From contig CAYJXI010000001.1 in NCBI GenBank assembly GCA_964374105.1, positions 7,743 to 71,742 on the forward strand: DNA of 64,000 nt. Direction: 5' to 3'. This stretch comes from an uncultured Planctomycetales bacterium. Lineage in GTDB: Bacteria > Omnitrophota > Gorgyraeia > Zapsychrales > JANLHA01. Below, one piece after another: positions 2-64,000 of the stretch (position 1 is the stretch's first letter; each line of letters begins with the position of its first letter). A program made the position numbers and the translations under genes. Below the pieces are notes generated by a model. The model searched no databases. It was given only the letters and a program-made list of their open reading frames with translations, and was not told the origin of the DNA.

Positions 2-660
2 GGGAAGGTCGCTGTGGAGACTGCCGTCATCATCGCCGGGCTAATGCTGGTCAACAAACATCTGCACAATAGATATGCTTTACAATTCATTTCGCTCGCC
101 GCCTTGACGCTGGCCATCTCCTTGATCCTGCACGGCGGTAATGTGATAATTCAGTTTGGTCAATTTGGGGATGTGTTGATTTGGAGAGTCCTTTCCGTCT
201 TTACCGGCACATTGATTTCCAGCCTGCTTTATGAGAAAGACAAGACTTTAGGTCAAAAGATTCTCTCCTCAATCCGCTGGACAGCGGCCATCAGCATTTT
301 GAGCGGGTACTACTTGTACTTTACATTTATTCCGTTCATTGGCGAGAGCTTCTCTGTGGAACGTTTCGGGGCAATCGCTTCCTACCTCAAATCGGCCTTC
401 GACCTGACGATCGGAAGTTTATTAACGATTCCGTTACAGGTCGCCTTTGGCGCGGCTTTGGGTGAGAAAAAGAATATTGTGACCCAGTGGGAAGAATTCA
501 AGACAACCGTCATAACGATTTATCCCATCAACTTCCTCTTCTGGTATCCGATGATGGTCATTGGTTGGTCCTTGTTCCCGGATGCATTCATTTTCAAGAA
601 TTATCATGCGGTTTTGGTGACCTTCTGGATGGGCATCCTTTCCCGCATTGTTAAGGTGTC
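2..660 (+). other. Cluster of ~6-7 predicted transmembrane helices
   Basis: Hydrophobic stretches such as VAVETAVIIAGLMLV, LQFISLAALTLAISLIL, VLIWRVLSVFTGTLISSLL, AAISILSGYYLYFTFIPFIG, ITIYPINFLFWYPMMVIGWSLF, AVLVTFWMGIL. Confidence 0.6.
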
Positions 661-48600: not shown

Positions 48601-51600
48601 CATTGAGTTTATGTATATCGCTGGAGCAGAGCATTACAATCGTGAAAAAGATGGAGAATTAGACACTATTGGTAAACTCGAGAAATTCCTTCCCGAGGCT
48701 GGGGTCGATTTTAAATTTGTCAAGGCCATCTTCCATCAGATGGAAGAATACCCAGTCACCCAAAAAATAGAAAAGATTCTGAGGGTCATGTTTATGCCAG
48801 CCTTTGAATTTCTGGCCTCCGCTCGACAGGCTAGAAAAGGAGATTTAAGCGCCGTTCCATTTACAGTTTATCGATTTGCTAAAGAAAATCAATTGAATTG
48901 GTTTGGATTAGAAAAACCGCAAGCTATCTCCACCTCACCTAAGGTTTCTGACATGGCGGGCAGTACTCAGCCGACAGCTACCCCACCGGTTATACCACCG
49001 GCAACCGAGGCCCCCCGCAGCGATAACAGCATCCGCAATGGACAAGGCGGCGGAGAAGATCAGCAAAAAGATCCCAGACGTAGTGTGCCGGGAGAATCGG
49101 TATTATCAGCCGAGGAGGTCAAAGGCGAAGTGGAAGATCGATTAAAAGAAGTCGAGGGAGATATCACCCGCTTCAAAGATATCCGCTCACTCAATCCCGG
49201 TGCTGTTCAATTAGCCTTGAATTCATTACCGATGGTGGAATCGGGGAAACCCGGCCAGATGATGGCCGGTCTCTTGGAGGTGTTCATTAAAGCCGGACGT
49301 GTCCGGGCCGGGCCTTTCAAAGAATTTTTAGCAACAGCCTATAAACACACCGATCAACAAGCCCGCCTGCCCCGTACAAGTTCCTCCGGGACTCTACGGG
49401 GCCTGCCGGACGGGCAGGAATATATCCTTCTTTCCACCCTTTATCCGGAGTACTTCAACAAACTGCAAATCGCTGCTTCCCTCATCCACGAAATTGGCGC
49501 TGTGTCCACATTCAATAAGTCAGAAGATGAAAATATCAAACGCCATGAGGCTTTCTTAAAACTTTCTGATAACCTCATGCGATATTCAGGTCCAATTGTT
49601 TTGGATCAACGCTTGTTTGAAATGTTAAGCCGCATGCAGTCCACCGGGAAACCGGTCATTACCGATCTTTCCTTAGAGGCCTTCTTACCCGAATTGAAAG
49701 GCGAAGCGCAAATGAGTCTTGCCAGTGGTGGGTTAGGCTTCCTCACCGGTGAGACCTGGGGTGCCTACCATCATTTAGAACAATTCCATGGAATAGGGGT
49801 GATGCCGCTTTATGCCCATTACTTCAATTCCTCAGGACAGTGGGTGAAGATTGATTGGCTAAATACCGAAGGGATTAAACCGGTCATGGTTAGAGATGCA
49901 CAAGGTAACGAAAAGATCCTTAGTTTCGATGTGGTTTATAATCGTCATCATTCCTATAAAGTGGAAATCTTCTGGATCAATCGAAATGGGATTCCGGTCT
50001 TCTTGATTTACGCTCCCCCAATTTTTAATCGTCTGTATCCGGGGGATGATCATCAGATCACCCAATTTACTTTCTTTGCCAGAACCTATGTCGAATTGAT
50101 GAAGAGACTGGGAATCCATCCGGATGTCGTGAGATTAAATGAACCCCAGCTTGTATTCGTGGCTTCCGCTATCAAGAACGATATTGATTGGTTCAATGAA
50201 TATCGAAAACAATCCCAGAGGGAAATCTACAGTAACTTTGAAGGTTCGCTCATTGTTACTACCATTCATACTCCCGAAAACGTGGCTATTCCCAGATGGT
50301 CGGCGGATTGGCTGAAAAATCATATTGGAGAGGATCTGGTGAGAGACTGGGACGGCGCTCGCGAGGCAATTGTCTATGAAGACTGGATAAAGAAAGTCCA
50401 TTCGGCGGTAGGGGTGGCGCGAGTCTCGGAGATCATCAATGCCGTCTCAGAGGAACATGCAGAAGTCACCAGGCTCGTTGTCCTGCCGCAATATAGAGAT
50501 AAGATTGTAGGGATTCAAAACGGCTCTGATCCAAGGTTGTGGTACTCACCGCAATTACAAGCAAAGGTTGATTCAGTGATCTCGCAGGAAGACATTACCG
50601 GAAAAGAATTATTTGACATTGGTCAGGCTCAGAAGGTTGCCCTCAATGAATATCTAGAAAAGAAATTTGGACCAGAGTTTAAATTCAGTGATTTACAAAG
50701 ACCATTGATTGGCCTGGTCAGACGGCTCGTGGCTTATAAGGAACAGAATATTTTGATTCCACTTATTCATTGGATTGTGGGTGATCGAAATCAATCCTAT
50801 GAAACTCCGTGGGGATTGCAGAATGGTCTGGAGGCTAATTTACTCATTGGCGGACATGCCCGGGATAGTTTTGGTGGTGAGTGGGTCAAAATATTTAAGG
50901 AATTGATGTATGACCAAAGAGTGAAAGGTAAATTCATCTTTGTCAATGATACCGGTATTGAATTGATGCGCTATGCCACCTCGGCCTCGGATATCTGGGT
51001 GAGTATCCCAAGAGCGACCCGTGAGGCCTCAGGCACAAGTGATCAGCGCGCCGCCCTCAATGGCCATTACAATATCGCCACCGCCACCGGCGGGCCGTTG
51101 GCTTATATTCAACACGGAGTAACAGGTTGGTTCATCGATGCCTTTAAAGACTGGAATTTTGAGGAAGTTGTTTATCGCTTTGACCGATTCGATCCGCAGA
51201 TTATTCAAATCTTCCAGCAGCAGGCGGCATTGCAGTTACATCTGTATTTAAAGGAGGCCGTGCAAAGATATTATGCCTATGTTGAAAACAGTGATCAAGC
51301 CTGGCTTGAGGGGATGCGGCAGGCCTTCCTCATGGCTCACCAAGAAGTGGCGATCAAGGTCATGATCGAAAAGTATGGATTGCTTTTTGAAAGCGCCTTA
51401 GATCAAACCGGGGCTCAGGGGTATCTTAAAAAGTACGATATATGGAAGAGGTTAAAGTCACAAGTCACAAGTCAGAAGTCATCCCTCGCTATCGCTCCCC
51501 GGCCCGCCAATCACAAGAGCCGGGGCGGGCAGGACAGGCAAGTCACAGGTCACATGTCAGATGACATCCCTCGACAAGGCTCGGGACAGGCAAGCCACCC

Positions 51601-54600
51601 CGGCCCGACAGAGCCGCAAGGCGGGGCGGGCATGCCACATGACACAAAGGAGGGTGACAGTCACCTTCCTTCGGCCATTGGCAAGGGAAGGGCGGTGGAA
51701 GAAGCCAAGAGTATCGCTCTTGAACCGCTTAAAGACCAATACCTTGAGGCCATTAATCGGGCAAGGAATGTCTTAGAAAGATTGGCGAAAGATCAAACGA
51801 TTCCTTTGGATGACCGGGAGTTTCTCATTCGCCTCCTTGGTTATCTTGAGGCCATGGGGCTGTTGTTAAATCAGGGAATCGTCACTATTGGGACATTTAA
51901 GGCGATCATTCGAGCGGTTGATGATTATCTGTTAGGATTCGGCGAACACCAGCCCATGCGGGTGACATTATCCATTGAGGTATTGGATGCAATCTTGAAG
52001 GATTCTTCTTTAAATCCAGAGCACATGGATCTTTTGATTGCCGAATATCTCTTCCATGAGGTTTATGCCTCCTTTGCACCGGAAGTGGATACCAAAGGTC
52101 AGCGTGATGAAGAGGAACACAAACGACGTTACGAAGGGATTCAGCGCCGGCTCTTTGGCAAAGAAAATATATTGGCTAAGTATTTGCGGGGTGTCCTTGA
52201 AAGTCATCTTTCACAGCCTGAAGTGGTTTCAAAAGCCCTCGATTCCCTCCCCCTTGTGGGGAGGGTTAGGGAGGGGGTGGAATCACAGTCTTCACCCTCC
52301 CCTAGCCCCTCCCATCAAGGGAGGGGAAGTGAAGAAGAAGCTGTAGAGAAAGTTACTAAGCCATTGACACGTGAAGGAGAGGATGAGCTGGCGGGATCAA
52401 ATATCCTGGATGTCATGAAGGAAGAAATCGAAAAGTTGCAAAATCATGTGATAACCCAGCGTCTTAAGAAAATGGAACTCCCGAAAGAGATTTTAGGATT
52501 TATTGGGGAAATAGATCAGTTATTGATGAAACTTAAGACCTCCACACGTAAAAATAAATTCAGTTTGATTCTCCAAATTTTGATTGCCATGAGCCGATTG
52601 CTTAAGGATATATCGCTAGGTGGAATGGACTTGGAAAAGAGACTTGTTGGATCAGAGTTTACTAATGAGCTAATGGGGCAATTTGAACGCCTTGGGATCA
52701 AAGGAAATCTGCAAATCATAGGCCTTGGTGATTTTTCTAGTGCCGGTAAAATCAACGAGGCCGTGGGATATATAAAGGCTTATGTCACCCTTCTTCAGAT
52801 AACCACCCGAGTTATCTCCCTTAAGGCCATGCGCTCTGGGCTAGAATTTGTCCTCAAAGGACCAGAAACCGATCAATTCTTTTTTACTCCCCTCTTTGGC
52901 CCCTCGAAACAAATTCGGGAAAAAGTGACCTGGAAACAAACAGGGGAGATCAGGCCATTATCGGATGTGGATTTGTTTGTTGAACAGTTGCGGTCATTGT
53001 TAAAGCGTCTCAATGAATTAGAAGCCATCCATGATAAAGCGGATCGGGAAACGATTGGGGAGATCTACCGTGATCTTCTCAAAGAAGGGGAAGATTTGCT
53101 TTCTCAAGAGAAGGGATACAAGGCTCCCACAGCCGATGGCAAGGCAGGATTGACCGGTGAGTTTAGGACTCAATTAGAAATATTCTTCCTTAAGATGACA
53201 ACAACGATCAATTGGGATATCCAGGTATTTTCAGATAGGTATTCGCAAACGTTTAAGTCAAGTATGTTTAAGTCGCTGGGCTTTGTTCAGCATTATTTTG
53301 GGAACATCATAAGACTCATGGGGATTGAGGAAGTAAGGGTATCAAAACTATTTAGTAATTTTGAGTTTAGAGCGGAATTAGCTAAAGAACCAGGAATGAT
53401 CACTCTGGATAAGGAAGAATCATTCGTGTTTGAGATGCAAACCTTGTCTTCCTTTGTTGAGGACAAATTAAGAAGACGTCCCGAGGCCCGTAAATATTTT
53501 GATTTTATGAATCAATTGAGTAAGAAATTCAAGGGTCAACTATCAAAAGTTCTATTTGAAGTAACGGTTTCGGCGATATCGATCAATGTCCTCTCAGAAG
53601 TACTCAAACTCTATTATTCCACAACAAAGATTAAAGACCAACAAAGCCAGCTGAAGCAATCATTAACCAAGTTCTTTGATAATTCGAGGATTCTAAGTGA
53701 GAAGACCGATGCGAAAGAAAAGGATCAATTGAGGGAGACCTTAGTCGATTTGATAAATCTTTTTGATCGAGTTGGGAGTGATGATGAGATAAGAGAGATC
53801 TTCATCAAGATGGCCCAATTCCGAGGCATTATGGATGCCTTAAGTTTTGATGAAACAAAAGCTCCAAAGATAGATCTGCCGGTTAATCAGCACTTGACTG
53901 ATCCTAACATAGATCAAATGGAGTATGTGATCCTTCAGCCCGGGATTGAGGCCTCCTTATACCTTCCCACAATAAAGGCCTTAAAGAAACGCAAGTTTAC
54001 GATTGTAGAAAATGATTTGTTCGCAAGGGAGTACTTAAAGAAGCTCATCGAGGTCATGGGTCTTGAATCAAGGGTAAAGATCAAAGAGATGGATTTAACT
54101 CGCCTTAAGGATGAATTTAAAGAAGAGAGCATCTCTACCTTAAGAATCAAAGAGGACGCGATTGCCTGGGATGAACTCCCAGAGGAGTGGTTTAAGACAT
54201 TGCCTTCCCTTATTGCCAAAGGCGGCGATATTCAGATTGCCCTCAAACCGCAAGGGTCAGAATCCAAAGTGATTCAATTGAAGGAAGTCCTGGAATCAGA
54301 AAAGGATAGACCTGAGGTTAAATTGATCCAGATGCTTTATCAGCACTTGGTTATTGAAAACAAATGGTCATTAGAATTTGGTCGCATGGGTAAGGGTAAA
54401 TTAGCCACGATGAAGACTGGCTTTGAGCGGAATGATATATATTTCGAGACGTTATTTATCTTTACCAAACCATACCCCGTTAAAAAGGAAGAGGCGAAAG
54501 CAGCAGAAGAAGTTGAATCTCAAGAACCCGAAGAAAGCGAGGAGCCAACTCTGCCGCAAGAAGAGACCATAAAACCAGACACAATCGTCTTGCCGGCAGA

Positions 54601-57600
54601 TCATGCAAAGTATGACGAAAGACTTTTTGCCGGGGACGCCAAGGCAGCGGAAGATATTTTCTTTGAGATCATCAGCGAAATATTGATCCAGAGAGAAGAA
54701 GCGAAAGAACTGCGGTCTGTTGTCATCAGGGCGAAAGTCAACAACGAAGGTGTGAGAGGCGCCTTTATGAGGCTGGGGATGATTGAGGTCAGGGAAGATG
54801 AAGACCGAGGCCTTTCCTTTGAAGAACTCCTCTTATCCTTAATCAAGCAGCAGGCAATCAGTTCAATAGAAGGCAAGAAAGTCAATGGCATCATTCACTT
54901 GATAGTGACGTGGGAGGAGCCAATTAAGGGAATTGAAAAAACCACCTTTCGTTTAGACCCGACTTACAAATTCAGTGAAACCTTCCGGTCCTTATGGAAA
55001 GAAGAAGGCGATTCTGTTGTCATCAATCCAAAGGCCGTAAGATCAAATAGGGTCGCAGAGACTTTTGTCCAATACTTGAGGAATGGCCTGCTGATATTGG
55101 ATGAGTTAAACCCGATCCCAGAAATGACCTTTGGCTTTACAACACAACTGGTCAATAAATTCCTCGATCAATTCAACGAACCTGCTTGGCTTGATCGGTG
55201 GTGGCCTGAAGAACACTATGAAGAATATCAAAAAGAGTTAAGACAGAGAGCGGTTGTCAAAGCTCAAGAAGACCAAGAGGCCAGAAAAGAAAAACTAAAA
55301 AAGAAAGAAAAGAAACCCGAAGGTGAACCCGAACATTACCCATTATCCCGGCAACTCAAAGAAATCTTTGCAAAGGAAATAGAAAAATTACAAAACCATC
55401 ATCTGGTCAAAATCCTTAAGACGTTGCCTCAACCGGAAGAGATTAGAAGGCACTTAAAAGAGGTTGAGGAAGTTATCAATGAGATCAACCAACTAAGCCG
55501 ACATGCCTTGCCTAAGAGATACCAGGGTATCCTTCAAAAACTGGGAACACTCATTAGTCAACTGGCCATGTCCGCCGTAAAAGCGGCTGTTGGTACGTGG
55601 ATGGAAGCTAAATTTAGCCAGTCGATGGGGTATATCAACAGTTACGTTATCGTCTTAACCAATACTTATCGTTCTATCAATATTAGAAGTAAACGAGCAG
55701 GCCTTGATATTGAATTAATAGTCTCTGAAGAAATTTTGGGACTTTTGAAAATTGATTCCCTGATTTTTGCTAGCGAACGGTTAGCTATTGAAGACTTAAC
55801 TCAATATTTTGGTTACCTTATGGAAATTTTGGATATCCTTGAATCCGTCAATGACCATTACAAAGAACTTCCTGAATTAAGGGAGACCTATGCAGAAAAT
55901 CTTAAAGATCTCATTGAGGAAGGGAAGGAAATGTCTCATCAAGCCATGCTTATTTTGCAAGATCAAACCAGCCCAACCGATTCAATCTTGGACCTGAAAT
56001 CTGAACATTTGATCCAATTGGAAATTTTTATCGCTCATCTAGTGAGTCTTTTAACCTTGACGCATGAATTGGTTTGGCCGGTCAGCCGTGAGAAACGCAT
56101 CAAACATCGTTTGGAATCATTTGGTCAATTGCAACAGAAGCTGATGGCTCTCTTGAAGGCCATAGGCGAGAAGGATCTTAATTCCAATAGGATTTTTGGT
56201 TATGACTATCGAGAATTTGCTCTTGCCTTGCCCGGCGCAGTCATGACAAGTCAGGATGAACATATTCTGGTTGAGAAAATTAATTTGATTCAAGAAATCC
56301 TTCAGAAATTTGAAACGCAGGCCGAAACAAAGAGGTTCCTTGATTTCTTTAGGAATCTAATAACGCAACTGATTGACTGGGGGATCTATGACGCCCTGGA
56401 AAGTTATCCTGCCAGGGATTTAGTTACCTTGATGGCGGCTGACTTCTTGAAGCGATTCTATTCAACGCCTCAGACCGCATCACTAAGGGAGCGAATTTTA
56501 ACGGCCTATCAAGCTCATCTCGAGGCCAATACAGATCAGATGGCAGTGATTCTTTTCTCGCGCGGTCAGCCGCCCCTTAATGAATACACGGTGCTGGTGA
56601 ATCTTGCCCAGAACGCTCAGAACGATCCATCGGCCGCCGGCCTCATAAGTTTATTAGCCAAATATCAACTCATAGTTGATTTATTAAAATTGCATAGAAC
56701 AAAGTATCAAACGAGACCCATGCCAGACAAGATTGATCCCAAGAATCCTAACGTCAATCAGTTCCCTTATGTCGATTTGGAAACAGGATTTGACGGTCTT
56801 TATAATCTCGTAGAACTTGAAAAAATAAAGGAGCGTCAGTTTATCTTGACCGATAATCCTTTGTTTGTCACTGAGTATCTTAAGAAGGCCGTTGAAATTC
56901 ATGGGTTAACCGGTCATGTCAAAGTGAAGAGTGTGGATGTTTTCGCTATTCAAAATGCCTTTGAGAAAGAGAGTATTGGCTCTTTAAGGATCCGCAGGCG
57001 AGTCCTTGAAAAGTCATCAATAAAAATTCAGAGTCCAGTCCTCCAAGAGATGACCGGGCTAAAAGAGGCAGTGACACTGCCTACCGATTGGTATTTGAGA
57101 TTGGCAGAACTCCTTGTAGAAGGCGGTCAGATGATCATTGATTTTAGTATACCAATGACCCAATCTAATACTCTTCTTGAAGTCCTCTCGAAATCAGGGG
57201 TTAGCTATCAAGACCATCCTTTAGTTCAAAAGATCGGGGTACTAATCATTAAATTCATAAGGCAGATTTATCAAGACTTGGTTACTCATCGGGGATGGGA
57301 ATTCCATGTCAAATTTGGCGGCTATAACAAAGAGGGAGAGTTTGTTAGTTTCACGGAACTTAAGGAGTCCAGCGAAACCCAGGAACAAGTTGTTATTATT
57401 ACCTTCACTAAACTCTCTAAGGGTGGTGAGCCCAAAGAGCCGCCTCAAGAAACTAAATCCAAAGAAGAAAAGCCCCTCACCCTTGAGGAACTCCTTAAAG
57501 TTAACCTTCTTTCTCGATTCAAAGACCAGTTGCGGAAATTAGAAGAACATCCTATCGTTAAACGCCTACAACGTGAACGCTTGAAACAATTTGAAGTCTA

Positions 57601-60600
57601 TAGGAAACCTCTGGAAGCCATAACACAAAAGATTCAGGCGGTGTCAGGGAGTGAAATCAAAGATGAGGTCTTTGCGGTGGTCCTAAAGAAACTGGAAGAG
57701 ACCGTTAATAAGATAATGAAAGAAGCCCGTGAGGCAGATGATTCCTTGAGATCTTATGCAGTCTTGTTGTTGTTGGCTTACTTGGATCTTTCTGTTCGAA
57801 CGTTGAGAGCTGGCATGGGATTTGAACTTTCCCGCGACTACATTCCTTTCTTTGGTCAGTCGATAAATGGTCAATGGAAGATCGATGATCGAAAAACACC
57901 GCTTAAATTTGGCGTTGAACAGTTTAAGAAAGATTTCACAGGATTAAGAAATGCCTTGGCGGATTATGAAAAGGAACAACACCTGCATAAAGCTTCCAAT
58001 GAAACTTTGGGCGAGAGGATAAGAGACATTTTAAAAGAAGCGGATTCCTTCATGGCGGATGAATCCCGTTACAAGGATGGATTGATCCCTGACTTTAGGA
58101 CTGACATGGAAAGCCTGATTCTGCGTTATGCCGAACTCATCAATTGGGATAAAGAAAAACTCTTTACGGAATCAACCAAACGCTTGAACCTTCAGGTCCG
58201 GGCTTGGATCAGCCATTACACCGGAAATATCTTAAGGAATATGGGTGTGGAGAGGATCACCATCCGGCAGCTGTTTAGGTATAACGATTTAAGAGACCAA
58301 TTGTTCAAAGAAAAGGATTTAGATATCTTAGATGAGGACGAACAGCTTATATTCGATCAAAAGCGGCTCGCGCGGACAATTGTTAAACAGATGGAACAGC
58401 TGGATGAGTTTAAGGAATTGATTCGTTTTATTGATCGAATGAGCGAAAAAATGAAACAAAGGGCAGAAGAAGCGGATTATCCAGTTGTTCTCTTAGGTGG
58501 CCTGGAAGCTATCAAAGAAGATTCTATCGTGAATTCAGCCGCCGGCCTCCTTAAAGGTTATTTCAATAGCTCGGAGAGTGACATCAGGGCAAAACGAGTT
58601 GGGGAAGCGATTGCAATAGCCGCTTCCGTAAAGAGTGGTGCCTTTCACCTTATAGATAGAGGAAGTGATCCAGGAAAGCCTACGCAAGAAGTCCTTGACT
58701 CGGTGGATGCGGTCTTACCTGTCATCGAATTGGCAGAAAGGTATACCTCTTTGGATGATTCTTCGGATCCGAGGGCCGTGATTCTAAGAAACCTCGCTGA
58801 TTATCAGGCCATGGAGGATAACAAGCCTATCTATTCTCAGTGGAAGAGACATGAGTCCATGCTTATCATTAAACACAGAGATTATCCTAAGATTGATGAG
58901 AAGCCATATTTAGAAATTGCCTCTGGGTTTTATAACGCCTTGTACTTACCCACGCTCCTTAAATCCGATGAACGTAACATTATCTTTGTCGAGAAACATG
59001 CCTTTGTTCGAAGATACTTATCGAGGTTGATTGAGCTTTACAGTCTTCAAGATCGCCTCCAAGTCCATCATCCGGAAGTGGAGTATGGACCCGAGGCCAT
59101 AAGGACGTTTAGATTAAAAGAAGTCATTGGCAAAATGGGAGGGGTTCTACCCAACTGGCATCTGCAATTGGCTCGGGTACTTGCTTCTGGCGGAGAGATT
59201 ATCTTAGGGCTTGAACCTTGGGGCGAGAGAGAAGAACGATTGGCTCTCAAAGAGATTTACCGTCAATTGGGCGATAAACCAGAGGCGAAATTTATTAGAA
59301 CCATGTTTGAAGATCTGGTCAAGAAAGGGAACTTCACCTTAGAGATGGGGCATATGGATGAGAGGGGTGAGTTTGTTTCAACGATGTCAGGATATAAACG
59401 AGATGGTTTGCTGGATATAGAAACACTGCTTATCTTCCGAAAGCCCTATGTGAAGAAAGAGGCGACTCAAATTCCTCCTCAGAAAGGCTATTTTATTAAG
59501 GACGATCAATTGCAAGATGAGTTAAAGAAGATCTTCTCAGAGGAATTGACTTGGGTCCTTGAGCACAAGATCACCCAGCGTGTTAAAGAGAGAGTTCCGG
59601 TGAAAGAAATTGGGGAACTGCTGGGTAAGATTAATAAAGTTATTGAAAAATTAGAAACCATGCCTTCGAAGGCTGACCCCTCTGAAGCTTTTGAAGGGCT
59701 TCTCCTAATCATTACCGATTTATTTGCAAGACTCATAACAATGGGAGAGGGCTTAGAGACGCAAATCAGGCAGAAAGATTTGGTGAATGCTTTACTCACC
59801 CAGCCGGGCGGATTTGAGGGATTTAAAGTCACATTAGAGGATATTCAAGGAGAAAAAGTGAAGCGATATGAAGATCTTCTGTCAGAAGAAGACAGGAAGG
59901 TCTTAAGCAGTCCAGAAAATATCGAATACTTCAAAGGCCTGGCCCTGGTCATAGATATCGCCATGAATCTCATCAAGTTAAGAGGTCTAAGGGCAGGTTA
60001 TAAAACCCATTTCAATCAATATGAGGTGATGCTCGTCTTTGATTCGAAACAAAAAGATCACCGCTTAACCGATGAAACCCGCAATATCCCGCAACTAGAA
60101 ATCTTTAAGAAAGAAATGCAGGCGTTGCGAGATCGGTTGCAGGAGAAGATTGATCAATATCAAAAAATTCTTACCCTTGATGAAACGATTCATGAGATCT
60201 ACGGAGAGCTGATTGTTGAGATTAACACAATTTTGGCCTCGGTTGAATCTCTTAAGGAAGGTCAATCAGAAATCCTGACCCCTGCCTTAAGACTTAAAGT
60301 AGAGATCTTAATCAACCAACTTTCGATTGCAAACGGATGGGATATGACGATAATCTCCGAGAAACATCCCCAAGTCTCTAAATTTTATCTTAAGAGAAAT
60401 ACCGGATGGATTCATCATCACGTGGCGAATATCATCCGGGCGTTAGGGATTGAAGATCTTCGCCTTGCCCATCTTTTTGGCGGGCATGATGAACGGTCCT
60501 ACGTGGAATACGAAGAGAAAGAAACGCTAGCCCTCGATCCCGAAGTTTCCCTGATCATCCGCTTAAGAGGTCTTCATAAAGAGATTGTGCAACTGATGCA

Positions 60601-63600
60601 GGATATCGATGAAACAAAACAGATCGACGCATTTTTTACCAGCAGATTCAAATATAAAGATGACTCTCCTGATAAACCCTATGAAAAAGAATTGCAGGAA
60701 GAGAACATTGTGAAATTATTTACACACTTTGTCAAAGCCTATTTGAGTGTATTCCCTGACCGCAAAAGACAATCTTTTGAAGATGTTAATAGAAAATTAG
60801 CCTCACATGATCCCGCATACTTAACTGATCCAAAGGCCCTAGAGACTGACCAGATTGTGAGGAAAATCGGTTCCACCCAAATGAACCTCATCGGCTTGAT
60901 CGACAAGTACGAGACCGATCCTAAGGTAAGGGTCTTATTGAATAAGATGGCAGAGTACCTGGGCTTAAAGGACGGTTTGAGCCAAGGATTGCTGGAAAAA
61001 CACAAGCAGTTGATCTCGCTGAATTTTTATCCTGAACGACCGGAATTCAGCGACTATCCTTATGTTGAACTGATAGCAGGAATAAAGACAGTCCATTATC
61101 TCTTTTATCTTTTCAATATCCCAGAACTCTTAAAGATCAAGACTCGAAAGATTATCTTAAATCATCCTCATCGATTTGTAAGAATCTATCTTCAAGAAGC
61201 GATCAAGGCGATGAATAAACAAAACGAAGTTGAAATTACCTCCTTCTCCATAAATGAGTTCATCGAAAAATTCAAGTCTGAGTCCATCTCGACCTTAGTC
61301 ATGCGAGAAGGCTTAGAAAGATTGGGCGAGGTTCCACCGAATTTGCATCATATATTAAGCCAAATGATGATTCCGGGTGGTGAGATCATGGTGGCCGTGC
61401 ATTTAGATTACGCAAAACCCACCCCCATTCGGATGAAAGACATCTTAACTTCCGATGCATCCAAACAGGAAATAAGACTGATTCAGAATCTCCTCCATGA
61501 TTATGTCAAGGCAACCAATCCTTGGGAATTAGAATTCGGGTTTATGGATATTGAGAAAGAGGAATTTATCAAAGAACAATCCGGATATTCCCCTGGTCCC
61601 GACCTTGAATTATCCACTTGGGTGATCTTAAGGAAACCCTACCTCAAGAAAGAGATGCCCATTAAGGCCGAGGTCAAGGCTGAGGAACGCCTGAAGACAG
61701 AATTAAAAGCTATTTTTGAAGAAGAACTTACTGGGTTTCAAGAACATAAGATCACCAAACATCTCAAGATCATGGAAGTCCCGCCAGCGATCGTAAATCT
61801 GATAAAGCAGGTGAATCGGCTCATTGATCAAGTCATTCATCTTTCCGTTGAGAAAGCCCAACCTCAAACCTTTGTCGATATTATTTTTGAATTAATAAGT
61901 TTACAAGAGGAAATCGTTAAACAAGGGAAGAAATTTGAAAGACCTACGAAGGAATTAACCGGTGAGGCGAGAAAGAGAGCCTTGAAAGCCGCTGGCAAGG
62001 CAGAACAAAAGGGCAAGATCATGATAGTGGGAGAAAAGGAACCGTTTGTGGATTATCTGAAAGGGTATACCCTGCTTTTGACTGTTGTGTATCGCACCAT
62101 GATTTTAAGAAGTTTACGAGAAGGGTTAACCATACCTTCTCTCGGCCAAGACATTGTAACCATTCTCTGGCCATCTCAGCCGGTGCCTGCGGGAATTATC
62201 CCCTTAACGAGTCTGGTTGACTTTGAGAGAGAAATGAAGGCTTTACTTGAACATCTTAAGGCTCTAGAAGCCCGTCACCAGGAAAATGAAAGCCTCAATA
62301 AAACTATCGGCGAGGTCTATCGCGATCTTATGGGGGAAATAGAAAGATTGATTTCTGATCGAGAAGGATACGCAAACGGCTTAACTGCCAGTTATCAGAC
62401 CGAGCTAGAAATATTTCTCAACCGATTGGCTACCACGGTCAGATGGGATTATAACTCGTTCTCAAATTCTCATACGATTATCAGAAATCTGAAGGAGTAC
62501 AAGGCCCTGGCATGGATCCAGCATGATGTCGGCAATATCTTAAAGGTCATAGGAACAAAAGATCTGAGGATTTCCTTGTTCTTTATAATGTCCGATATGC
62601 GAGGCGCCTTATCTAAGGAGACAGGTCTTGTTTCCTTAGATAGAGAAGAGAGGTATTTCTTTGAGACGAGACAATTACAAGGAGAGATTGTTAAACTTTT
62701 GAGAAAACGACCTGAGGCACAAGGCTATCTTAATTATACCAATGAACACTTTAGAAAACATGAAGAATTCTCCTTTAGTGAGGAGGAAATGGAAGAGATC
62801 ATTTCAGAAATCCAGGTGGCGACTTTGGGTGATTTCCTTAAACTGTACGATTCCCAGGTCAAGAAACCTGATCAAGCTCAATTTATTCAATCTCATATGA
62901 GGATTCTCGCTGACAAAATAGGGCCTTGGGTGATGGGAACCTTAGAACCGGATATAGATTTATTTATTAAAGCGATGAAAGAATTATTGAATCTGCTTGA
63001 TCATCTTCAGTCCATTGAGGAGGCCAAACAACTGATAAAGCTTTTAGCCCGATACCAGGGGATTGTAGACATCTATGATGGTTATATTCCCAATGTGCCG
63101 CGGCGAATCATTCCTGCCATCGTTCATCATCCTCAGGTGCAGGCGTTCCCGATTGTCGAAATCGCTCCCGGGGTAGAGGGGATTTCATATCTGGTTTCCA
63201 TGAAGGCATTACAGAACCGAAAGTTCATCCTGATTCAAAACAATCTATTTGTGAGGGAGTATCTTAAGACAGCCGTTGAGGTCTTAGAGATGGAATCCCA
63301 AGTCGAAGTCAAAGAGACCGAACTTAAAGATCTTACCAAAGACTTTGAGAAAGAAAGTATTTCAACGGTAAGAATCAAAGAAGGGGCGTTGGATTATAGC
63401 CAGTTGCCAGAAGATTGGTATAAGTCATTGACAGAACTTGTTACTAAAAACGGTCATATCCAGATTGCCTTTAAACCCAGAGATCAAGGGGCTAAGCATA
63501 TTCAATTATCTCATCTGGCTTCTATCTTTGGGAATATTCCGGAAGTCCAATTGGTTTTGAAACTTCACCGCGATCTAGTGAAAGTCAAACAATGGAAGTT

Positions 63601-64000
63601 TATGTATGGCCGCCTGGACCGCGATCAAGGATTTGTCCATGAGAAGATGGGGATTGTGAAAGAAGGATGGCCGTATTTAGAGACATTGTTTATCTTTATC
63701 AAACCAGAACAAGAAAAAGAACAAGTAAAAGCATCCGAAGAAGTTGAAGAAAGGGCTGAAGAAGAAGCGCAAGAGCAAGAAGAAATTATCAAGCCTCTGA
63801 TCCTGACAATTCCTATCTCTGAATTGAATTATCCAGCAGAGATTCTCAAAGGCGATAAAGATGCCCTCTCTTTAGGACTTTTTGAATTTTTAAGTGTTCA
63901 GTTTAATAAGATCAAAGAAACGGATGAAGAAAGCAAAGTCGTCGTTAGATTAAAGGCCAATAAGAAAGGTCCCATGATCGCCGCAGAAACCCTCGGCTTA
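2..64000 (+). CDS. Internal fragment of a single giant ORF (>=21,333 codons, partial at both ends) encoding a membrane-anchored multidomain megaprotein
   Basis: Manual codon-by-codon translation in the phase starting at nt 2 found no stop codon across the window. Recognisable protein motifs stay in this phase throughout (GalE, J-domain, PP2C, Udk and others). The supplied ORF track lists no + strand ORF in this phase, which is the expected result if the phase is never interrupted. Every listed track ORF is antisense or out of phase. Confidence 0.85.
758..1140 (+). other. HExxH zincin-like module, family A copy 1 (…APPVVVTADFKKTQGSIAAYN…LYIHLAVLD…FEGHEEFHIQG…EARQRTLEYL)
   Basis: HEEFH encoded at 1073-1087. 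The same module architecture recurs at 6947-7330 and 9953-10345. Confidence 0.5.
1680..2050 (+). other. Pol-beta-type (minimal) nucleotidyltransferase-like domain
   Basis: Motif VIYGSYPYGFRVSPSDLDIVAVVD (G-S at 1724-1729, then 10 residues, then D-L-D at 1760-1768) fits the hG[GS]x9-13Dh[DE]h signature. Confidence 0.45.
2500..2935 (+). other. GHKL / histidine-kinase-like ATPase (HATPase_c-like) domain
   Basis: FEDNGVGY (2764-2784) followed by GRGFGLFLSKSLI and GSFTIES…G.RYTF resembles the N, G1 and G2 boxes of HATPase_c. Confidence 0.45.
3350..3990 (+). other. HxGH nucleotidyltransferase-like (NadD/cytidylyltransferase-like) domain, copy 0
   Basis: RVLLQGFSANPIHLSHIAFVL aligns to the GGTFDPxHxGHL motif. 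Its architecture parallels the domains at 47470-48075 and 48305-48900. Confidence 0.4.
4140..4400 (+). other. HExxH zincin-like module, family A' copy 1 (…VISPSLAAPAEVKNRILFVNPNILRGPP…IFEGHELFHLLGHDEQEARRLTIRYL)
   Basis: HELFH encoded at 4327-4341. Near-identical peptide and DNA copy at 5795-6080. Confidence 0.5.
4577..4960 (+). other. Cluster of ~4 transmembrane helices
   Basis: FALIVGLVSGLVIPYGMTF, FMWVAEGLAILTFIALNLFIVYLVSASLF, ITLMALTSGLLLTIEILYGVPFWFLILTGVWGIPVLIW. Confidence 0.6.
5795..6080 (+). other. HExxH zincin-like module, family A' copy 2
   Basis: ASLGGQKALVEKG…VISPSLAAPAEVKNGILFVNLNILRGPP…VIFEGHELFHLLGHNEAEARDLTVQYL, with HELFH encoded at 6005-6019. Confidence 0.5.
6180..6800 (+). 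other. Cluster of ~6 transmembrane helices
   Basis: LIVVLVWSLLGAGLIVGVYLTGYL, LPVAGLDILTGAIIWGVADIIG, ALVAVFGILGGLGTHILL, IFRAFVVLVGGLALTLVF, LLAPLKTFVVINLLPVAARVI. Confidence 0.6.
6947..7330 (+). other. HExxH zincin-like module, family A copy 2
   Basis: …APPVVVTSDFGKTEGSITAYNPAEGILYIHLFVLDKL…VIEGHERFHVEGANEADARLKTIEYL, with HERFH encoded at 7265-7279. Confidence 0.5.
7199..7234. repeat. Two tandem copies of the 13-bp palindrome GGTGACAGTCACC (7202-7214 and 7219-7231), flanked by AAA…TTT
   Basis: Directly read: aaaGGTGACAGTCACCaaaaGGTGACAGTCACCttt. Copy 1 is translated as G-D-S-H and copy 2 as V-T-V-T, so the same DNA word is used in two codon phases. Confidence 0.9.
7720..8560 (+). other. 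Uridine kinase / phosphoribulokinase-family P-loop kinase-like domain
   Basis: Walker A ISGEGGGGKSS (7742-7765). IIFDDYIL aligns to the Udk D.YY motif. IIIVEGILTLFDENLAKDERVISMFVDAHFEARLLRMLIRF matches the Udk core VIILEGILLL…FVD…RL.RRI.RD. Confidence 0.55.
9953..10345 (+). other. HExxH zincin-like module, family A copy 3
   Basis: …APPVIITSDFDKTRGSIAAYNSAEGVLYIHLFVFDKL…VIEGHERFHIEG…QKTIQYL, with HERFH encoded at 10280-10294. Confidence 0.5.
10560..10960 (+). other. Possible Rossmann-fold (class I methyltransferase-like) domain
   Basis: GKTIMLVGINSN (beta1 plus loop), IIVVNPD (acidic end of beta2), VDLIFSSGLFNE (post-II motif). Confidence 0.3.
11015..11073. repeat. Cluster of three GC-rich palindromes in a G/P/R-rich linker
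   Basis: AGTGACAGTCACT (11015-11027), CCCGCCaaGGCGGG (11028-11041), and a perfect 20-bp palindrome CCTGCCTGCCGGCAGGCAGG (11050-11069). Confidence 0.85.
11218..11355 (+). other. Two transmembrane helices
   Basis: ALPSIFKFLAKMAGVLAIQIVGMGGGNIGVVLVITTLTFIVLWGG. Confidence 0.55.
15921..16340 (+). other. Family B module, copy 1 (PTATRSGEPLS…LREYLKLKVGQFSSYA…RKIRAGPN…GIDLLAFN…IIHPEL…HETAAVLGFSH)
   Basis: Conserved ~145-aa module present four times (here, 30415, 34341 and 39343). Motif HETAAVLGFSH encoded at 16265-16297. Confidence 0.5.
16545..16590. repeat. Three adjacent GC-rich palindromes
   Basis: CCCGCCATGGCGGG (16545-16558, perfect 14-mer), GCGGGGTTAACCCCGC (16566-16581, perfect 16-mer), CCGCCaaaGGCGG (16578-16590). 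Confidence 0.85.
17160..17700. repeat. GC-rich repetitive insert encoding a P/G/A/R-rich low-complexity linker
   Basis: ~29-bp direct repeats ttgaagcctccgcgccaatcttccgtgcc and ttgaagccttcgctccaatctcccgtggc. Inverted repeats ccatgaacc…ggttcatgg and ccccgta…tacgggg. The cacaagtcacaag motif. Local GC far above the flanking sequence. Confidence 0.8.
17547..17670. repeat. Tandem direct repeat of three 40-bp units (gtcaGCCCGCCccggtcttcgcaactGGCGGGCcggggag), each with an internal 7-bp inverted repeat
   Basis: Units at 17547-17586, 17587-17626 and 17627-17666, with 2-3 mismatches between units. The unit length is not a multiple of 3, so each copy is translated in a different phase (SQPALVFATGGPGR / SARPGLRNWRAGEV / SPPRSSQLAGRGS) without a stop. 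Confidence 0.9.
17710..17890 (+). other. Pair of transmembrane helices; the first has a PEP-CTERM-like layout (FAP, hydrophobic helix, KAKNR)
   Basis: SFAPIVIVGLGIATVVIIMTIKAKNRL and FLSIATLMAVVGSLWTIWI. Confidence 0.5.
17917..18009. repeat. ~90-bp triple-hairpin element, copy 1
   Basis: ccctcccccttgtggggaggg (8-bp stem); gggagggggtga…tcaccctcccc; cccctccatcaatggagggg. Second copy at 52237-52329 in the same codon phase, translated LDSLPLVGRVREGV…QSSPSPSPSHQ. Confidence 0.85.
20412..20930 (+). other. Possible ChaN / TraB / Tiki-superfamily domain
   Basis: VVFLGETEHFSSTDKYLVARSLKELKTLGITHLALE resembles the ChaN vLLGEqHdn motif. The C-terminal LLVINGNAHSNYQ resembles the GnaH motif. Confidence 0.3.
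21275..21326. repeat. 12-bp tandem duplication (aggtcaaaggtg x2) followed by the palindromes GGTGACTGTCACC (21295-21307) and GGTGACAGTCACC (21311-21323)
   Basis: Directly read. Translated …KVRSKVTVTFGDSHLW. The two copies of the palindrome are used in two phases (VTVT, then GDSH). Confidence 0.9.
22343..23460 (+). repeat. Partial upstream copy (R1) of the ~3.4-kb repeat unit; strongly purine-rich segment with G-ending codons; contains an HExxH (HELLH at 22691-22705)
   Basis: 22346-22670 is ~85-90% identical to 23467-23790 at the DNA level (EGGVMLGSGRGLSAVQEKMV…KHLYLDERE…). The plus strand here is almost entirely G/A-rich, which explains the long antisense ORFs in the track. Confidence 0.8.
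23461..26880 (+). repeat. ~3.4-kb repeat unit R2: an HExxH module (HEMGH at 23810-23824) through to a C-terminal J-domain
   Basis: Co-linear with R3 at the protein level along its whole length (…HEMxHL.NP…GGLKI…RKFLLPRKAE…DHAIDYALAL…VLRREIY…NYYAILGV…YHPDR…). Confidence 0.8.
26429..26630 (+). other. J-domain (DnaJ N-terminal domain-like), copy 1
   Basis: NYYAILGVPMKATPLMIDRSFKALSFLYHPDRAQPSEKAKAEEEFKRINEAYQALSDPQRRKEYDE has the HPD tripeptide and the canonical spacing. E. coli DnaJ itself reads YHPDRN. Confidence 0.75.
26881..30290 (+). repeat. ~3.4-kb repeat unit R3: an HExxH module (HEMLH at 27227-27241) through to a C-terminal J-domain
   Basis: Protein-level co-linearity with R2. The DNA has diverged, so this is not a recent duplication. 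Confidence 0.8.
29835..30030 (+). other. J-domain, copy 2
   Basis: NYYVILGVPRQATSKDIDRSFKALAMLYHPDRAPEPERAQAHQEFKVINEAYQVLSDAEKRQDYEN. Confidence 0.75.
30415..30860 (+). other. Family B module, copy 2
   Basis: STATRSGEPMSEEQ…RKIRAGPVEIF…GIDLLAFNYEGWIVIHPEL…LIHETGAVYGLKH (encoded at 30761-30793). Confidence 0.5.
31800..32250 (+). other. GNAT-fold N-acetyltransferase-like domain
   Basis: …LAIYVEPRYQGLGIGRTLMGLALRIARQLGVKEFSL… The R/Q.xGxG/A motif A with a downstream helix is typical of GNAT. Confidence 0.45.
33084..33115. repeat. Perfect 32-bp palindrome AGGTAGGGGCACGGCATGCCGTGCCCCTACCT
   Basis: Directly read and reverse-complemented. It lies in frame and encodes VEVGARHAVPLPLT. Confidence 0.9.
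33372..33510 (+). other. Helix-turn-helix motif resembling the IS3-family transposase N-terminal HTH (HTH_Tnp_1-like)
   Basis: RKGITEERFLEVALNHLEDENPRETIALELGINIQTVSYWLKKLGL, compared with the PF01527 pattern …EEFK.EAV.L…G.SV.EVARELGVS.STLYRWVK…. Confidence 0.4.
34341..34790 (+). other. Family B module, copy 3
   Basis: PTATRSGEPLSEEQKRQLREYLKLKVGQFSSYA…ILAHETGAIYGLEH (encoded at 34688-34720). The DNA is ~80% identical to copy 1 over the N-terminal ~100 nt. Confidence 0.5.
36302..36510 (+). other. Two transmembrane helices; the first is a PEP-CTERM-like anchor (FEPL, then a hydrophobic helix, then TRW)
   Basis: AAFEPLTFIALLAGFGILGVYMTRW and LGTMGLAAFAPLLTCCSLIPG. Confidence 0.5.
36530..37360 (+). 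other. Possible TraB / Tiki / ChaN-superfamily domain, second copy
   Basis: N-terminal LILIGMEHN… and C-terminal YFLIGFNHVKKIEEALG resemble the paired G.aH motifs of TraB/PrgY. Confidence 0.3.
39343..39790 (+). other. Family B module, copy 4
   Basis: STATRSGEPLTEEKERQLRQYLKLKVKDFSGYG…ILAHETGAIFGLPH (encoded at 39689-39721). Confidence 0.5.
39890..40700 (+). other. Ribulose-phosphate 3-epimerase family (TIM-barrel) -like domain
   Basis: NAIHFDVQQKEG (compare HvDvMDG), PIEVHLMYWQP (compare ldvHLMvenP), LIRTLGIRAGIALSL (compare lIkelGakaGvvlNP), ADAILLSAVMEGTRGGTFDS (compare vDlVLlMsVnPGFgGQkF), IHIQGGINKETIGIAASGGATAFVSGTFV (compare ieVDGGin.e.i.elaeAGAdvfVaGSaiF). Confidence 0.65.
40778..41815 (+). 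other. galE-like: UDP-glucose 4-epimerase (GalE) / NAD-dependent epimerase-dehydratase-like domain
   Basis: VLVTGGAGYIAAGVIHDLL (GxxGxxG Rossmann), VFASSAGVYSG, NPYGETKYLMERL (catalytic YxxxK), FVALRFFNVAGA, IRDYIHLLDLADAH. Co-linear with E. coli GalE over ~330 aa. Confidence 0.8.
42330..42700 (+). other. PEP-CTERM-like anchor (YEPL, hydrophobic helix, KKRW) plus a further ~3 transmembrane helices
   Basis: YEPLVMLVLLAGVGILGIYKKRWFAKR; VLLLTITTFLVPFPTFYLSPLFLPGWMMMPAIIIPVAIVTIINFLATVSL. Confidence 0.5.
43480..44000 (+). other. Possible HEAT / PBS-lyase-like alpha-helical repeats
   Basis: Repeated ~30-aa units with DxDVR..A…LG motifs (DEDVRLSSIESLGRI; DVRREALKGILVIL). Confidence 0.25.
44950..45735 (+). 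other. PP2C-family Ser/Thr protein phosphatase-like domain
   Basis: AIADGHGKRGAE (motif 1 DGHGG), GGTTLSVAYI, AAFIGDSLIWIRNRDG (GDSR), MMSRSLGDKNF, FMVVGSDGI. Confidence 0.65.
45880..45907. repeat. GGTGACTGTCACC palindrome (45880-45892) followed by a degenerate second copy GGCGATAATCACC, flanked by AAA…TTTTT
   Basis: Directly read; translated KVTVTQGDNHLF. Confidence 0.85.
45950..46200 (+). other. HExxH zincin-like module (HEFLH at 46124-46138)
   Basis: …HHYQITLIGVSGDVEIYLLFHEFLHVYLEE… follows the same aromatic…LY.h…HExxH layout as family A. Confidence 0.35.
47470..48075 (+). other. HxGH nucleotidyltransferase (NadD / NMNAT-like) domain, copy 1
   Basis: VAVFPVAGNPLHWAHILIG (compare FGGTFDPVHYGHL), VVGADHY (compare IIGxDsl), ASSSMARSGN (compare ISATIIRERL.NG). 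Confidence 0.5.
48305..48900 (+). other. HxGH nucleotidyltransferase-like domain, copy 2 (H-motif degenerate: NPISLGDL)
   Basis: IAVFPISGNPISLGDLIVALG…YIAGAEHY…ASARQARKGD is co-linear with copy 1 but has lost both motif histidines. Confidence 0.45.
49660..51420 (+). other. GT35 alpha-glucan / glycogen phosphorylase-like domain
   Basis: N-terminal LSLEAFLPELKGEAQMSLASGGLGFLTGETW (compare FSMEyGL…YSGGLGvLAGDhlKSA). C-terminal TREASGTSDQRAALNGHYNIATATGGPLAYI (compare EASGTSNMKfaLNGALTIGT.DGANVE). The expected PLP-binding Lys position reads Arg. Confidence 0.55.
51440..51670. repeat. GC-rich repetitive linker: (aagtcac)n heptamer run, gcccgcc…ggcgggc hairpins, and GGTGACAGTCACC at 51653-51665
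   Basis: aagtcacaagtcacaagtcagaagtca; ccggcccgccaatcacaagagccggggcgggc; translated KSQVTSQKSS…PRPANHKSRGGQDRQVTGHMSDD…EGDSHLPS. Confidence 0.85.
52237..52329. repeat. ~90-bp triple-hairpin element, copy 2
   Basis: Near-identical to 17917-18009 (about 5 mismatches) and in the same codon phase. Confidence 0.85.
53930..54480 (+). other. Rossmann / class I methyltransferase-like module of repeat unit 1
   Basis: ILQPGIEAS (motif I-like), FTIVEND (acidic end of beta2), ESISTLRI, LIAKGGDIQIAL (motif III LkpGG-like), LFIFTKPYP. Confidence 0.35.
56760..57440 (+). other. Rossmann / methyltransferase-like module of repeat unit 2
   Basis: YVDLETGFDGL, FILTDNPLFVTEYLKK, ESIGSLRIRR, LVEGGQMIIDF, VVIITFTK. 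Confidence 0.35.
58890..59460 (+). other. Rossmann / methyltransferase-like module of repeat unit 3
   Basis: YLEIASGFYNAL, IIFVEKHAFVRRYL, LASGGEIILGL, LLIFRKPYVKKE. Confidence 0.35.
61060..61650 (+). other. Rossmann / methyltransferase-like module of repeat unit 4
   Basis: YVELIAGIKT, IILNHPHRFVRIYL, ESISTLVMRE, MIPGGEIMVAV, WVILRKPYLKKE. Confidence 0.35.
63150..63720 (+). other. Rossmann / methyltransferase-like module of repeat unit 5
   Basis: IVEIAPGVEGISYL, FILIQNNLFVREYLK, ESISTVRIKE, VTKNGHIQIAF, LFIFIKPEQEKE. Confidence 0.35.

Follow-up and report, generated by a model that had tools for sequence, protein, structure and literature searches.

A tandem array of five cassettes with a predicted methyltransferase-fold module in a giant open reading frame of an Omnitrophota bacterium

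The window analyzed here is a stretch of 64,000 nucleotides (nt) from an uncultured Planctomycetales bacterium, placed in the Omnitrophota by GTDB (contig CAYJXI010000001.1, assembly GCA_964374105.1). Its last 11.6 kb encode a tandem array of five homologous cassettes, each composed of an all-alpha domain of about 490 residues and a C-terminal domain of about 200 residues. According to structure models, the latter, in the following called the module, has the fold of class I S-adenosylmethionine (SAM)-dependent methyltransferases. The cassettes are named U1 to U5 by their order along the plus strand. An original prediction, made from the letters of the sequence, had proposed at least five tandem units of about 700 amino acids (aa), each ending in a degenerate, Rossmann/methyltransferase-like pseudo-enzyme module. 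Here, we describe the array and its relatives, and weigh what the modules may do.

Results and Discussion

Five cassettes at the end of a giant open reading frame

A six-frame scan revealed a single stop-free frame of 21,333 codons, which extends over nt 2-64000 of the plus strand and is open at both window ends. The longest run of any other frame in the window does not exceed 210 codons. Since the whole window is one open frame, the array represents the C-terminal 3,864 residues of a giant-gene fragment, a context that the original prediction had not noted. Residue numbers below refer to this frame.

Self-BLASTP of the window protein, with the query tiled in 400-residue pieces, and a MAFFT alignment of the units established five homologous units (Table 1). 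Their pairwise BLASTP E-values range from 1e-11 to 4e-61, with U1 and U5 as the closest pair. Thus, the five units and their periodicity stand up in a formal self-alignment, and the unit starts originally proposed lie within 44 nt of ours. The cores of approximately 690 residues are 20-35% identical to each other (17-32% in the part before the module and 24-42% within it) and share 33 invariant alignment columns. A hidden Markov model (HMM) of the unit, run against all 21,333 residues, recovered exactly five copies and no weaker ones upstream.

The units abut directly, and each carries the conserved start motif IFxEEL..LQEH. The spacing of their starts is 2952, 2085, 2085, and 2181 nt. A period of about 2.1 kb, as originally proposed, therefore describes the later units but is not uniform, because unit 1 carries an extra extension of about 290 residues. 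The core of U5 is complete within the window, and the 93 residues following it match the start of the unit 1 extension; the corresponding alignment pairs aa 18001-18260 with aa 21077-21333 at 39% identity. Consequently, the window edge cuts an extension and not demonstrably a sixth unit, and the earlier assertion that the array continues past the edge goes beyond what the window shows. No tandem repeat was found in the array at the nucleotide level. The periodicity exists at the protein level only, which indicates that the duplication is old.

Table 1. Features of the tandem array and the surrounding open reading frame (positions in the window)
Feature	Position (nt)	Strand	Residues (aa)	Remarks
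Unit 1, all-alpha domain	52409..53893	+	17470-17964	alignment; helical model
Unit 1, predicted methyltransferase-fold module	53894..54490	+	17965-18163	motif I-like YVILQPGIEA; beta2 end TIVEND (Glu); post-beta3 EMDL (Asp)
Unit 1, extension of ~290 residues	54491..55360	+	18164-18453	no Pfam match; first ~95 residues homologous to the sequence after unit 5
Unit 2	55361..57430 (module 56738-57430)	+	18454-19143	only copy with all three family Asp: YVDLETG, LTDNP, SVDV
Unit 3	57446..59461 (module 58877-59461)	+	19149-19820	Glu at the three acid positions; only copy with the GHxD His (MGHMD)
Unit 4	59531..61654 (module 61031-61654)	+	19844-20551	beta2 acid lost (ILNHP); post-beta3 acid lost (FSIN)
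Unit 5	61712..63721 (module 63128-63721)	+	20571-21240	modelled copy; beta2 acid replaced by Gln (LIQNN)
Start of a unit 1-type extension after unit 5	63722..64000	+		BLASTP, alignment; runs into the window edge
Giant-gene fragment	2..64000	+		only long open frame; embedded Pfam domains; hydrophobic segments up to aa 14227

Predicted methyltransferase fold of the C-terminal module

For the module, an AlphaFold2 (AF2) model was built on U5 with a 27-sequence family alignment. It reached a predicted local distance difference test score (pLDDT) of 91.9 and a predicted template modelling score (pTM) of 0.89. Along the chain, its elements follow the order beta1-aA-beta2-aB-beta3-aC-beta4-aD-beta5-aE-beta6-beta7, ending in a beta6-beta7 hairpin. 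A Foldseek search of the PDB with this model returned 798 matches at E≤1e-3, the best 50 of which are all class I SAM-dependent methyltransferases (template modelling (TM) scores of 0.47-0.59, identities of 8-16%). Among the best matches are BVU_3255 (3e7p/3t7s), a Lmo small-domain methyltransferase (3lpm), METTL1/Trm8 (8d5b, 2vdu), TrmM (7wm5), and MnmM (8h26). On the strength of the model, the module is a domain of the class I SAM-dependent methyltransferase fold, in good agreement with the Rossmann/methyltransferase-like character first read from the sequence.

Profile searches of the PDB sequences point in the same direction, at marginal scores. With a profile of the wider family described below, the only natural proteins matched at E<0.01 were PMT2 (3.9e-4), CmoA (4gek, 1.2e-3), and 3mgg (5.4e-3). 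The alignment with CmoA is in register at four motifs: FVDxSP of the family with IDNSP, aDI with GDI (GDIRDI), LxNV with LNF, and PGG. Three de novo TIM barrels headed the profile matches; they were rejected as spurious, since they matched a short GGxIxI stretch over and over, with per-domain E-values of 13-270. Likewise, a PCNA match obtained with a PDB profile of the five copies only was put down to chance.

The motif I loops of U1 to U5 read QPGIEA, ETGFDG, ASGFYN, IAGIKT, and APGVEG, respectively, and only their central Gly is invariant. All motifs quoted in the original prediction (DLETGFDG, LEIASGF, VELIAGI, VEIAPGVEG, and GG(D/E/Q)I) were recovered, and its remark on the missing canonical motif applies to the complete tail, where no GxGxG occurs.

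An unmodelled family of related modules

When 1.84 billion representative proteins were searched with a profile built on the five units, 32 of them matched at E≤1e-3, the best at 4e-26. All 32 matches are confined to profile positions ~420-677, i.e., to the module and the two helices preceding it. A reciprocal HMM of the family scores the five window units at 175-194 bits. The family consensus reads PYxDLASGxN ... R..FVDxS.FV..YL ... DI ... P.SIGTLRL.NV ... W...L.PGG.II ... W....GH.D..G.F ... T...F.KP, and we refer to this uncharacterized family as the DLASGxN/GHxD family.

The relatives contain one module copy each. Most are long and unnamed, with a maximum length of 7,556 residues, and some have 290-450 residues. 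A cluster look-up returned "hypothetical protein" as their sole description. No Pfam or NCBIfam model exists for the module family; only two of the relatives show sub-threshold matches (Ubie_methyltran, E 0.008; Methyltransf_31, E 0.014). A homologue search with the family alignment found a single protein, P0015. One family copy lies in an open reading frame of at least 4,999 residues on CAZGQR010000009.1 (L001:2-14998, plus strand), a contig of a metagenome-assembled genome labelled Planctomycetia. A stand-alone member of 371 residues (P0003; L002:5945-7060, plus strand) starts with an N-terminal hydrophobic anchor. Its neighbours are the housekeeping genes lgt, a rluD-like gene, PEPCK, purC, and a mscS-like gene, which are uninformative. 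By their sequences, family members may be widespread in very long proteins of the PVC (Planctomycetes-Verrucomicrobia-Chlamydiae)/Omnitrophota type and occur in small stand-alone proteins as well, at least two of which have an apparent signal or anchor start.

Two further observations concern the relatives. Read by eye, most of the long ones as well as the small P0003 and P0015 appear to begin with a signal-peptide-like sequence. In addition, P0009, P0011, P0023, P0025, P0026, and P0028 contain short, protein-specific peptides every ~250-650 residues, which bracket domains: RTSP occurs 15 times (0.04 expected), SELR nine times (0.12 expected), SSSP(V) seven times, and (S/A)GFGA eight to nine times. 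These peptides could mark cassette junctions or processing sites. A k-mer scan of the window protein identified no recurring junction peptide.

An orphan all-alpha domain

For the first ~430 residues of the unit, the search of the same representative proteins with the five-unit profile found no relatives. Pfam assigned no family to aa 17401-21333 even at E≤0.1, nor did NCBIfam. A homologue search with unit 1 found nothing, and searches of the genome, metagenome, and viral contig collections yielded no close relatives of the units. We also tried to equate the helical domain with an N-terminal region of the relatives carrying the motif AREIY..DP.FV..G.DF. This candidate was rejected, as hhalign detected similarity only in the last ~50 residues (two helices) with a probability of 1.4%.

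An AF2 model of the full U1 core, built from five sequences, reached a pLDDT of 73.7 and a pTM of 0.76. It shows long helices at residues 1-480 and an alpha/beta domain at residues 505-686, consistent with the helical front part originally assigned to each unit. The PDB matches of this full-core model are methyltransferase-fold proteins only. With the matches confined to this fold, the helical domain appears to have no recognizable solved counterpart.

Erosion of polar residues in the window copies

Three acidic positions of the module (in motif I, at the end of beta2, and after beta3) correspond to what we take to be the SAM-contact positions in canonical enzymes, judging by the Kagan-Clarke motifs and the CmoA alignment. 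In canonical enzymes, the acid at the C-terminal end of beta2 contacts the ribose hydroxyls of SAM. Among 22 relatives, these positions hold Asp in 22, 21, and 20 proteins, respectively. The window copies deviate from this pattern, each in its own way (Table 2).

Table 2. Residues of the window copies at the three acidic positions of the module family
Position	U1	U2	U3	U4	U5
Motif I	I	D	E	E	E
End of beta2	E	D	E	N/H	Q
After beta3	D	D	E	S	E

The Asn that the family carries after beta4 is replaced in all five window copies, and the His of the GHxD motif is lost in every copy but U3. Over the 34 residues of the family consensus, the window copies keep 16-21 (47-62%), compared with a mean of 73% in the relatives. 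The loss is concentrated on the five near-invariant polar columns (three Asp, Asn, and His). Here, the window copies retain 5 of 25 residues and the relatives 98 of 110, whereas in the other consensus columns the window copies keep 86 of 145 (Fisher p = 3.6e-4 for the two groups of columns in the window copies).

Thus, the degenerate character claimed by the original prediction is visible in the missing GxGxG and the eroded polar residues. Its label of pseudo-enzyme goes further than these residues do, as U1 to U3 keep the beta2 acid and U2 all three Asp. Judged by these residues, SAM binding appears plausible for U2, U3, and U1 if a change from Asp to Glu is conservative, and doubtful in U4 and U5.

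Origin of the array

In a neighbour-joining tree, the five window modules form one clade with the pairs (U1,U5) and (U3,U4). A stronger argument comes from the orphan helical domain, which all five units have in common and which turned up in no other protein. Our best reading of the sequences is therefore an ancient intragenic duplication of the entire cassette. U1 and U5, the closest pair, have the extension in common and lie 3,100 residues apart. This likeness hints at a higher-order super-repeat composed of U1 to U4.

What the cassettes may do

The array shares its part of the chain with sugar-active domains. Upstream in the window frame, several Pfam domains were identified: GalE, Ribul_P_3_epim, GT5/GT1, GNAT, two DnaJ domains, ChaN, PRK, and a cytidylyltransferase. 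The glycogen-synthase-like GT5/GT1 pair, at aa ~16638-17048, lies upstream of the first cassette. A crude hydropathy scan of the frame marked 17 hydrophobic, transmembrane-like segments, the last at aa 14196-14227 and none beyond. The GT5/GT1 pair and the array are thus not separated by any such segment and share one side of the membrane.

We propose that the whole cassette was duplicated first and that the methyltransferase-fold domains would then have drifted away from the near-invariant polar positions, while residues determining the fold were kept. The cassettes would descend from a SAM-dependent enzyme and serve to bind ligands or as scaffolds, possibly acting on, or holding, the compounds processed by the sugar-active domains nearby (GT5/GT1, GalE). 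From the residue patterns we infer, with a probability of roughly one half, that most copies have given up the ancestral reaction. SAM binding may persist in U2 and perhaps in U1 and U3; in U4 and U5 it is probably weak or absent.

Several points weigh against this interpretation. If the exchange of Asp for Glu is counted as conservative, 11 of the 15 cofactor-site acids are retained, and it is then chiefly the Asn and His columns that carry the statistical signal of erosion. Non-canonical motif I loops occur in many bona fide methyltransferases, so the missing GxGxG is no proof of lost SAM binding. Finally, the clade of the five modules has weak bootstrap support, at 93 of 200 replicates.

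The main alternative, possible though in our view less likely, is that all five modules are active SAM methyltransferases with diverged specificities, forming a battery that modifies a glycan, lipid, or protein processed by the neighbouring domains. The fold is unambiguous, and the relatives preserve Asp at motif I, post-I, and post-beta3 in 20-22 of 22 cases; within the array, U1 to U3 have the beta2-end acid and U2 has the full set of Asp. The membrane-free segment that the tail shares with the nucleotide-sugar-requiring GT5/GT1 pair suggests a compartment to which cofactors have access, and published surveys describe methyltransferase domains as common in such giant proteins. What speaks against an active battery is the absence of the ribose-binding acid in U4 (N/H at beta2, along with S after beta3) and U5 (Q at beta2), together with the loss of the post-beta4 Asn in five and of the GHxD His in four of the five copies. 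Moreover, no methyltransferase model of Pfam or NCBIfam matches any unit, even at E 0.1.

The reading of the cassettes as ligand-binding or scaffold modules can also be carried further. In a bolder form, which we consider unlikely, the combination of an orphan helical domain with an undescribed methyltransferase-fold family would constitute a new cassette type. Its five differently eroded copies would then form a graded SAM-sensing or polymer-binding series, serving as scaffold or ruler for the adjacent sugar-active domains and not as enzymes.

Alternatively, the methyltransferase fold might have been recruited for other chemistry, such as aminopropyl or carboxymethyl transfer or a SpnF-like cyclization, or for the sensing of small molecules, with GHxD and Asn as the real active site. 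The nearest match by sequence profile, CmoA, has the methyltransferase fold without catalyzing methyl transfer and fits this idea, as do spermidine synthase and SpnF among the fold matches and the family's own C-terminal motif GHxDxxGxF, which is not canonical for methyltransferases. Yet the E-value of CmoA is marginal (~1e-3), classical methyltransferases dominate the fold matches, and most window copies have lost precisely the His and Asn in question. For the array we regard this explanation as improbable; it fits the relatives better.

A similarly low probability is given to the possibility that the giant frame encodes a polyprotein, from which proteolysis would release five proteins of about 700 residues, the array being five fused genes. 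Direct abutment of the units, their conserved start motif, and the existence of stand-alone family members of 290-450 residues are compatible with this. So are the RTSP and SELR tetrapeptides that bracket cassettes in long relatives at no more than 0.12 expected occurrences each. Set against it is the lack of a recurring junction peptide in the window protein. Furthermore, a polyprotein would be compatible with any functional reading and modifies rather than replaces the others.

That skewed composition or coiled-coil-like helices mimic a periodicity here has a negligible probability: although Glu, Lys, and Leu are abundant in the sequence and an untiled self-BLASTP showed no repeats (the self-match masked them), tiled self-BLASTP, alignment, HMM, and AF2 model exclude it, with composition-corrected E-values down to 4e-61 in register over ~400 residues, the 33 invariant columns in 690 residues, and a confident globular fold of the module.

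Other features of the giant frame

Several observations were made upstream of the array. Two epimerase domains lie one after the other at aa ~13355-13900 (nt 40064-41701), first a ribulose-phosphate 3-epimerase and then a GalE-type UDP-glucose 4-epimerase. The latter is about 50% identical to free-standing GalE proteins, and by its sequence it looks like an intact enzyme within the giant chain. A homologue search with this region found ordinary free-standing GalE proteins only.

Cys is very rare, with 16 residues among 21,333. All of them occur in vicinal pairs (CC, CxC, CxxC) at eight sites spanning aa 3935-12163 (nt ~11804-36490), and none occurs in the 3,864-residue tail.

The frame contains additional repeats. 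A second, dispersed repeat family comprises four copies of ~160-220 residues with 47-68% identity and no Pfam match, located at aa 5293-5461, 10133-10330, 11442-11599, and 13100-13308 (nt ~15878, 30398, 34325, and 39299, respectively). Its motifs are TATRSGEP, RKIRAGP, GIDLLAFN, HPEL, and HETGAxxGxxH, the last of which resembles the HExxH motif of metallopeptidases. Two copies of a ~1,130-residue unit stand in tandem at aa 7800-10078 (nt ~23399-30235), with 32-50% identity and E-values down to 1e-102; both Pfam DnaJ domains fall inside this stretch. An extra pair of 140-residue copies is found at aa 7452-7591 and 7825-7964 (74% identity). Finally, a Ser/Pro-rich, linker-like stretch of 37 residues (..SPSPSPS..HQGRG..) occurs at aa 5967-6003 and 17407-17443 (nt ~17900 and ~52220) with 78% identity between its copies, the second being located directly upstream of unit 1.

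Relation to known systems and significance

The array belongs to a type of giant multi-enzyme protein already described in Omnitrophota and is not a system of a new kind. West-Roberts et al. (2023, bioRxiv 10.1101/2023.11.21.568195) defined an "Archaeovorin" category with glycosyl transferases, methyltransferases, and a SAM-methyltransferase-like domain recognized by structure only. Nielsen & Lui (2026, bioRxiv 10.64898/2026.06.07.730766) described class 1 "multi-enzyme metabolic clusters", in which PF08323, PF00534, PF00583, and PF08241 are common. They reported a repeated domain in 65% of Pfam-positive long proteins, with the nucleotide tandems dissolved. The window frame resembles such proteins in exceeding 10,000 residues, in the transmembrane helices scattered along the chain, and in its GT5 (PF08323), GT1, GNAT, epimerase, and methyltransferase-type content. 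It also resembles them in carrying repeated domains in one chain that have diverged at the protein level and left no nucleotide tandem, as well as methyltransferase-like domains detectable by structure only. The difference lies in the repeated unit, which is Pfam-dark and includes a helical part of ~430 residues without relatives.

Compared with class I SAM methyltransferases in general, the window module agrees in the order of strands and helices, the beta6-beta7 hairpin, the central Gly of motif I, and the PGG-x-hydrophobic motif at beta5. The wider family additionally matches CmoA, in register, by having Asp in motif I, at the end of beta2, and after beta3. The module differs from these enzymes in its low identity (8-16%) at TM scores of ~0.5-0.6, the missing GxGxG, and the lack of a Pfam or NCBIfam match. 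Its family possesses motifs of its own, SIGTLRLxNV and GHxDxxGxF, and the window copies deviate further by the variable replacement of cofactor-site acids.

Duplication of the methyltransferase fold, with an eroded copy serving substrate binding or structural support, is familiar from PRMT7, PRMT9, the nematode enzymes PMT-1/PMT-2, and METTL3-METTL14. Those systems have two modules, in contrast to five here, and are characterized families with known substrates. Their sequence link to the window module is limited to marginal PMT profile matches.

Bacterial giant proteins with tens of thousands of residues have for the most part escaped interpretation, and long parts of them lack any Pfam annotation. 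In the present case, a Pfam-blank stretch of 11.6 kb turns out to comprise one cassette in five ancient copies, the C-terminal part of which has a confidently predicted methyltransferase fold. The unmodelled family with its 32 representatives and defined motifs could serve as an annotation profile for further giant proteins. If our interpretation of the cassettes as ligand-binding or scaffold modules holds, the differing residue losses among the five copies would provide a natural series on how enzyme domains decay into such modules.

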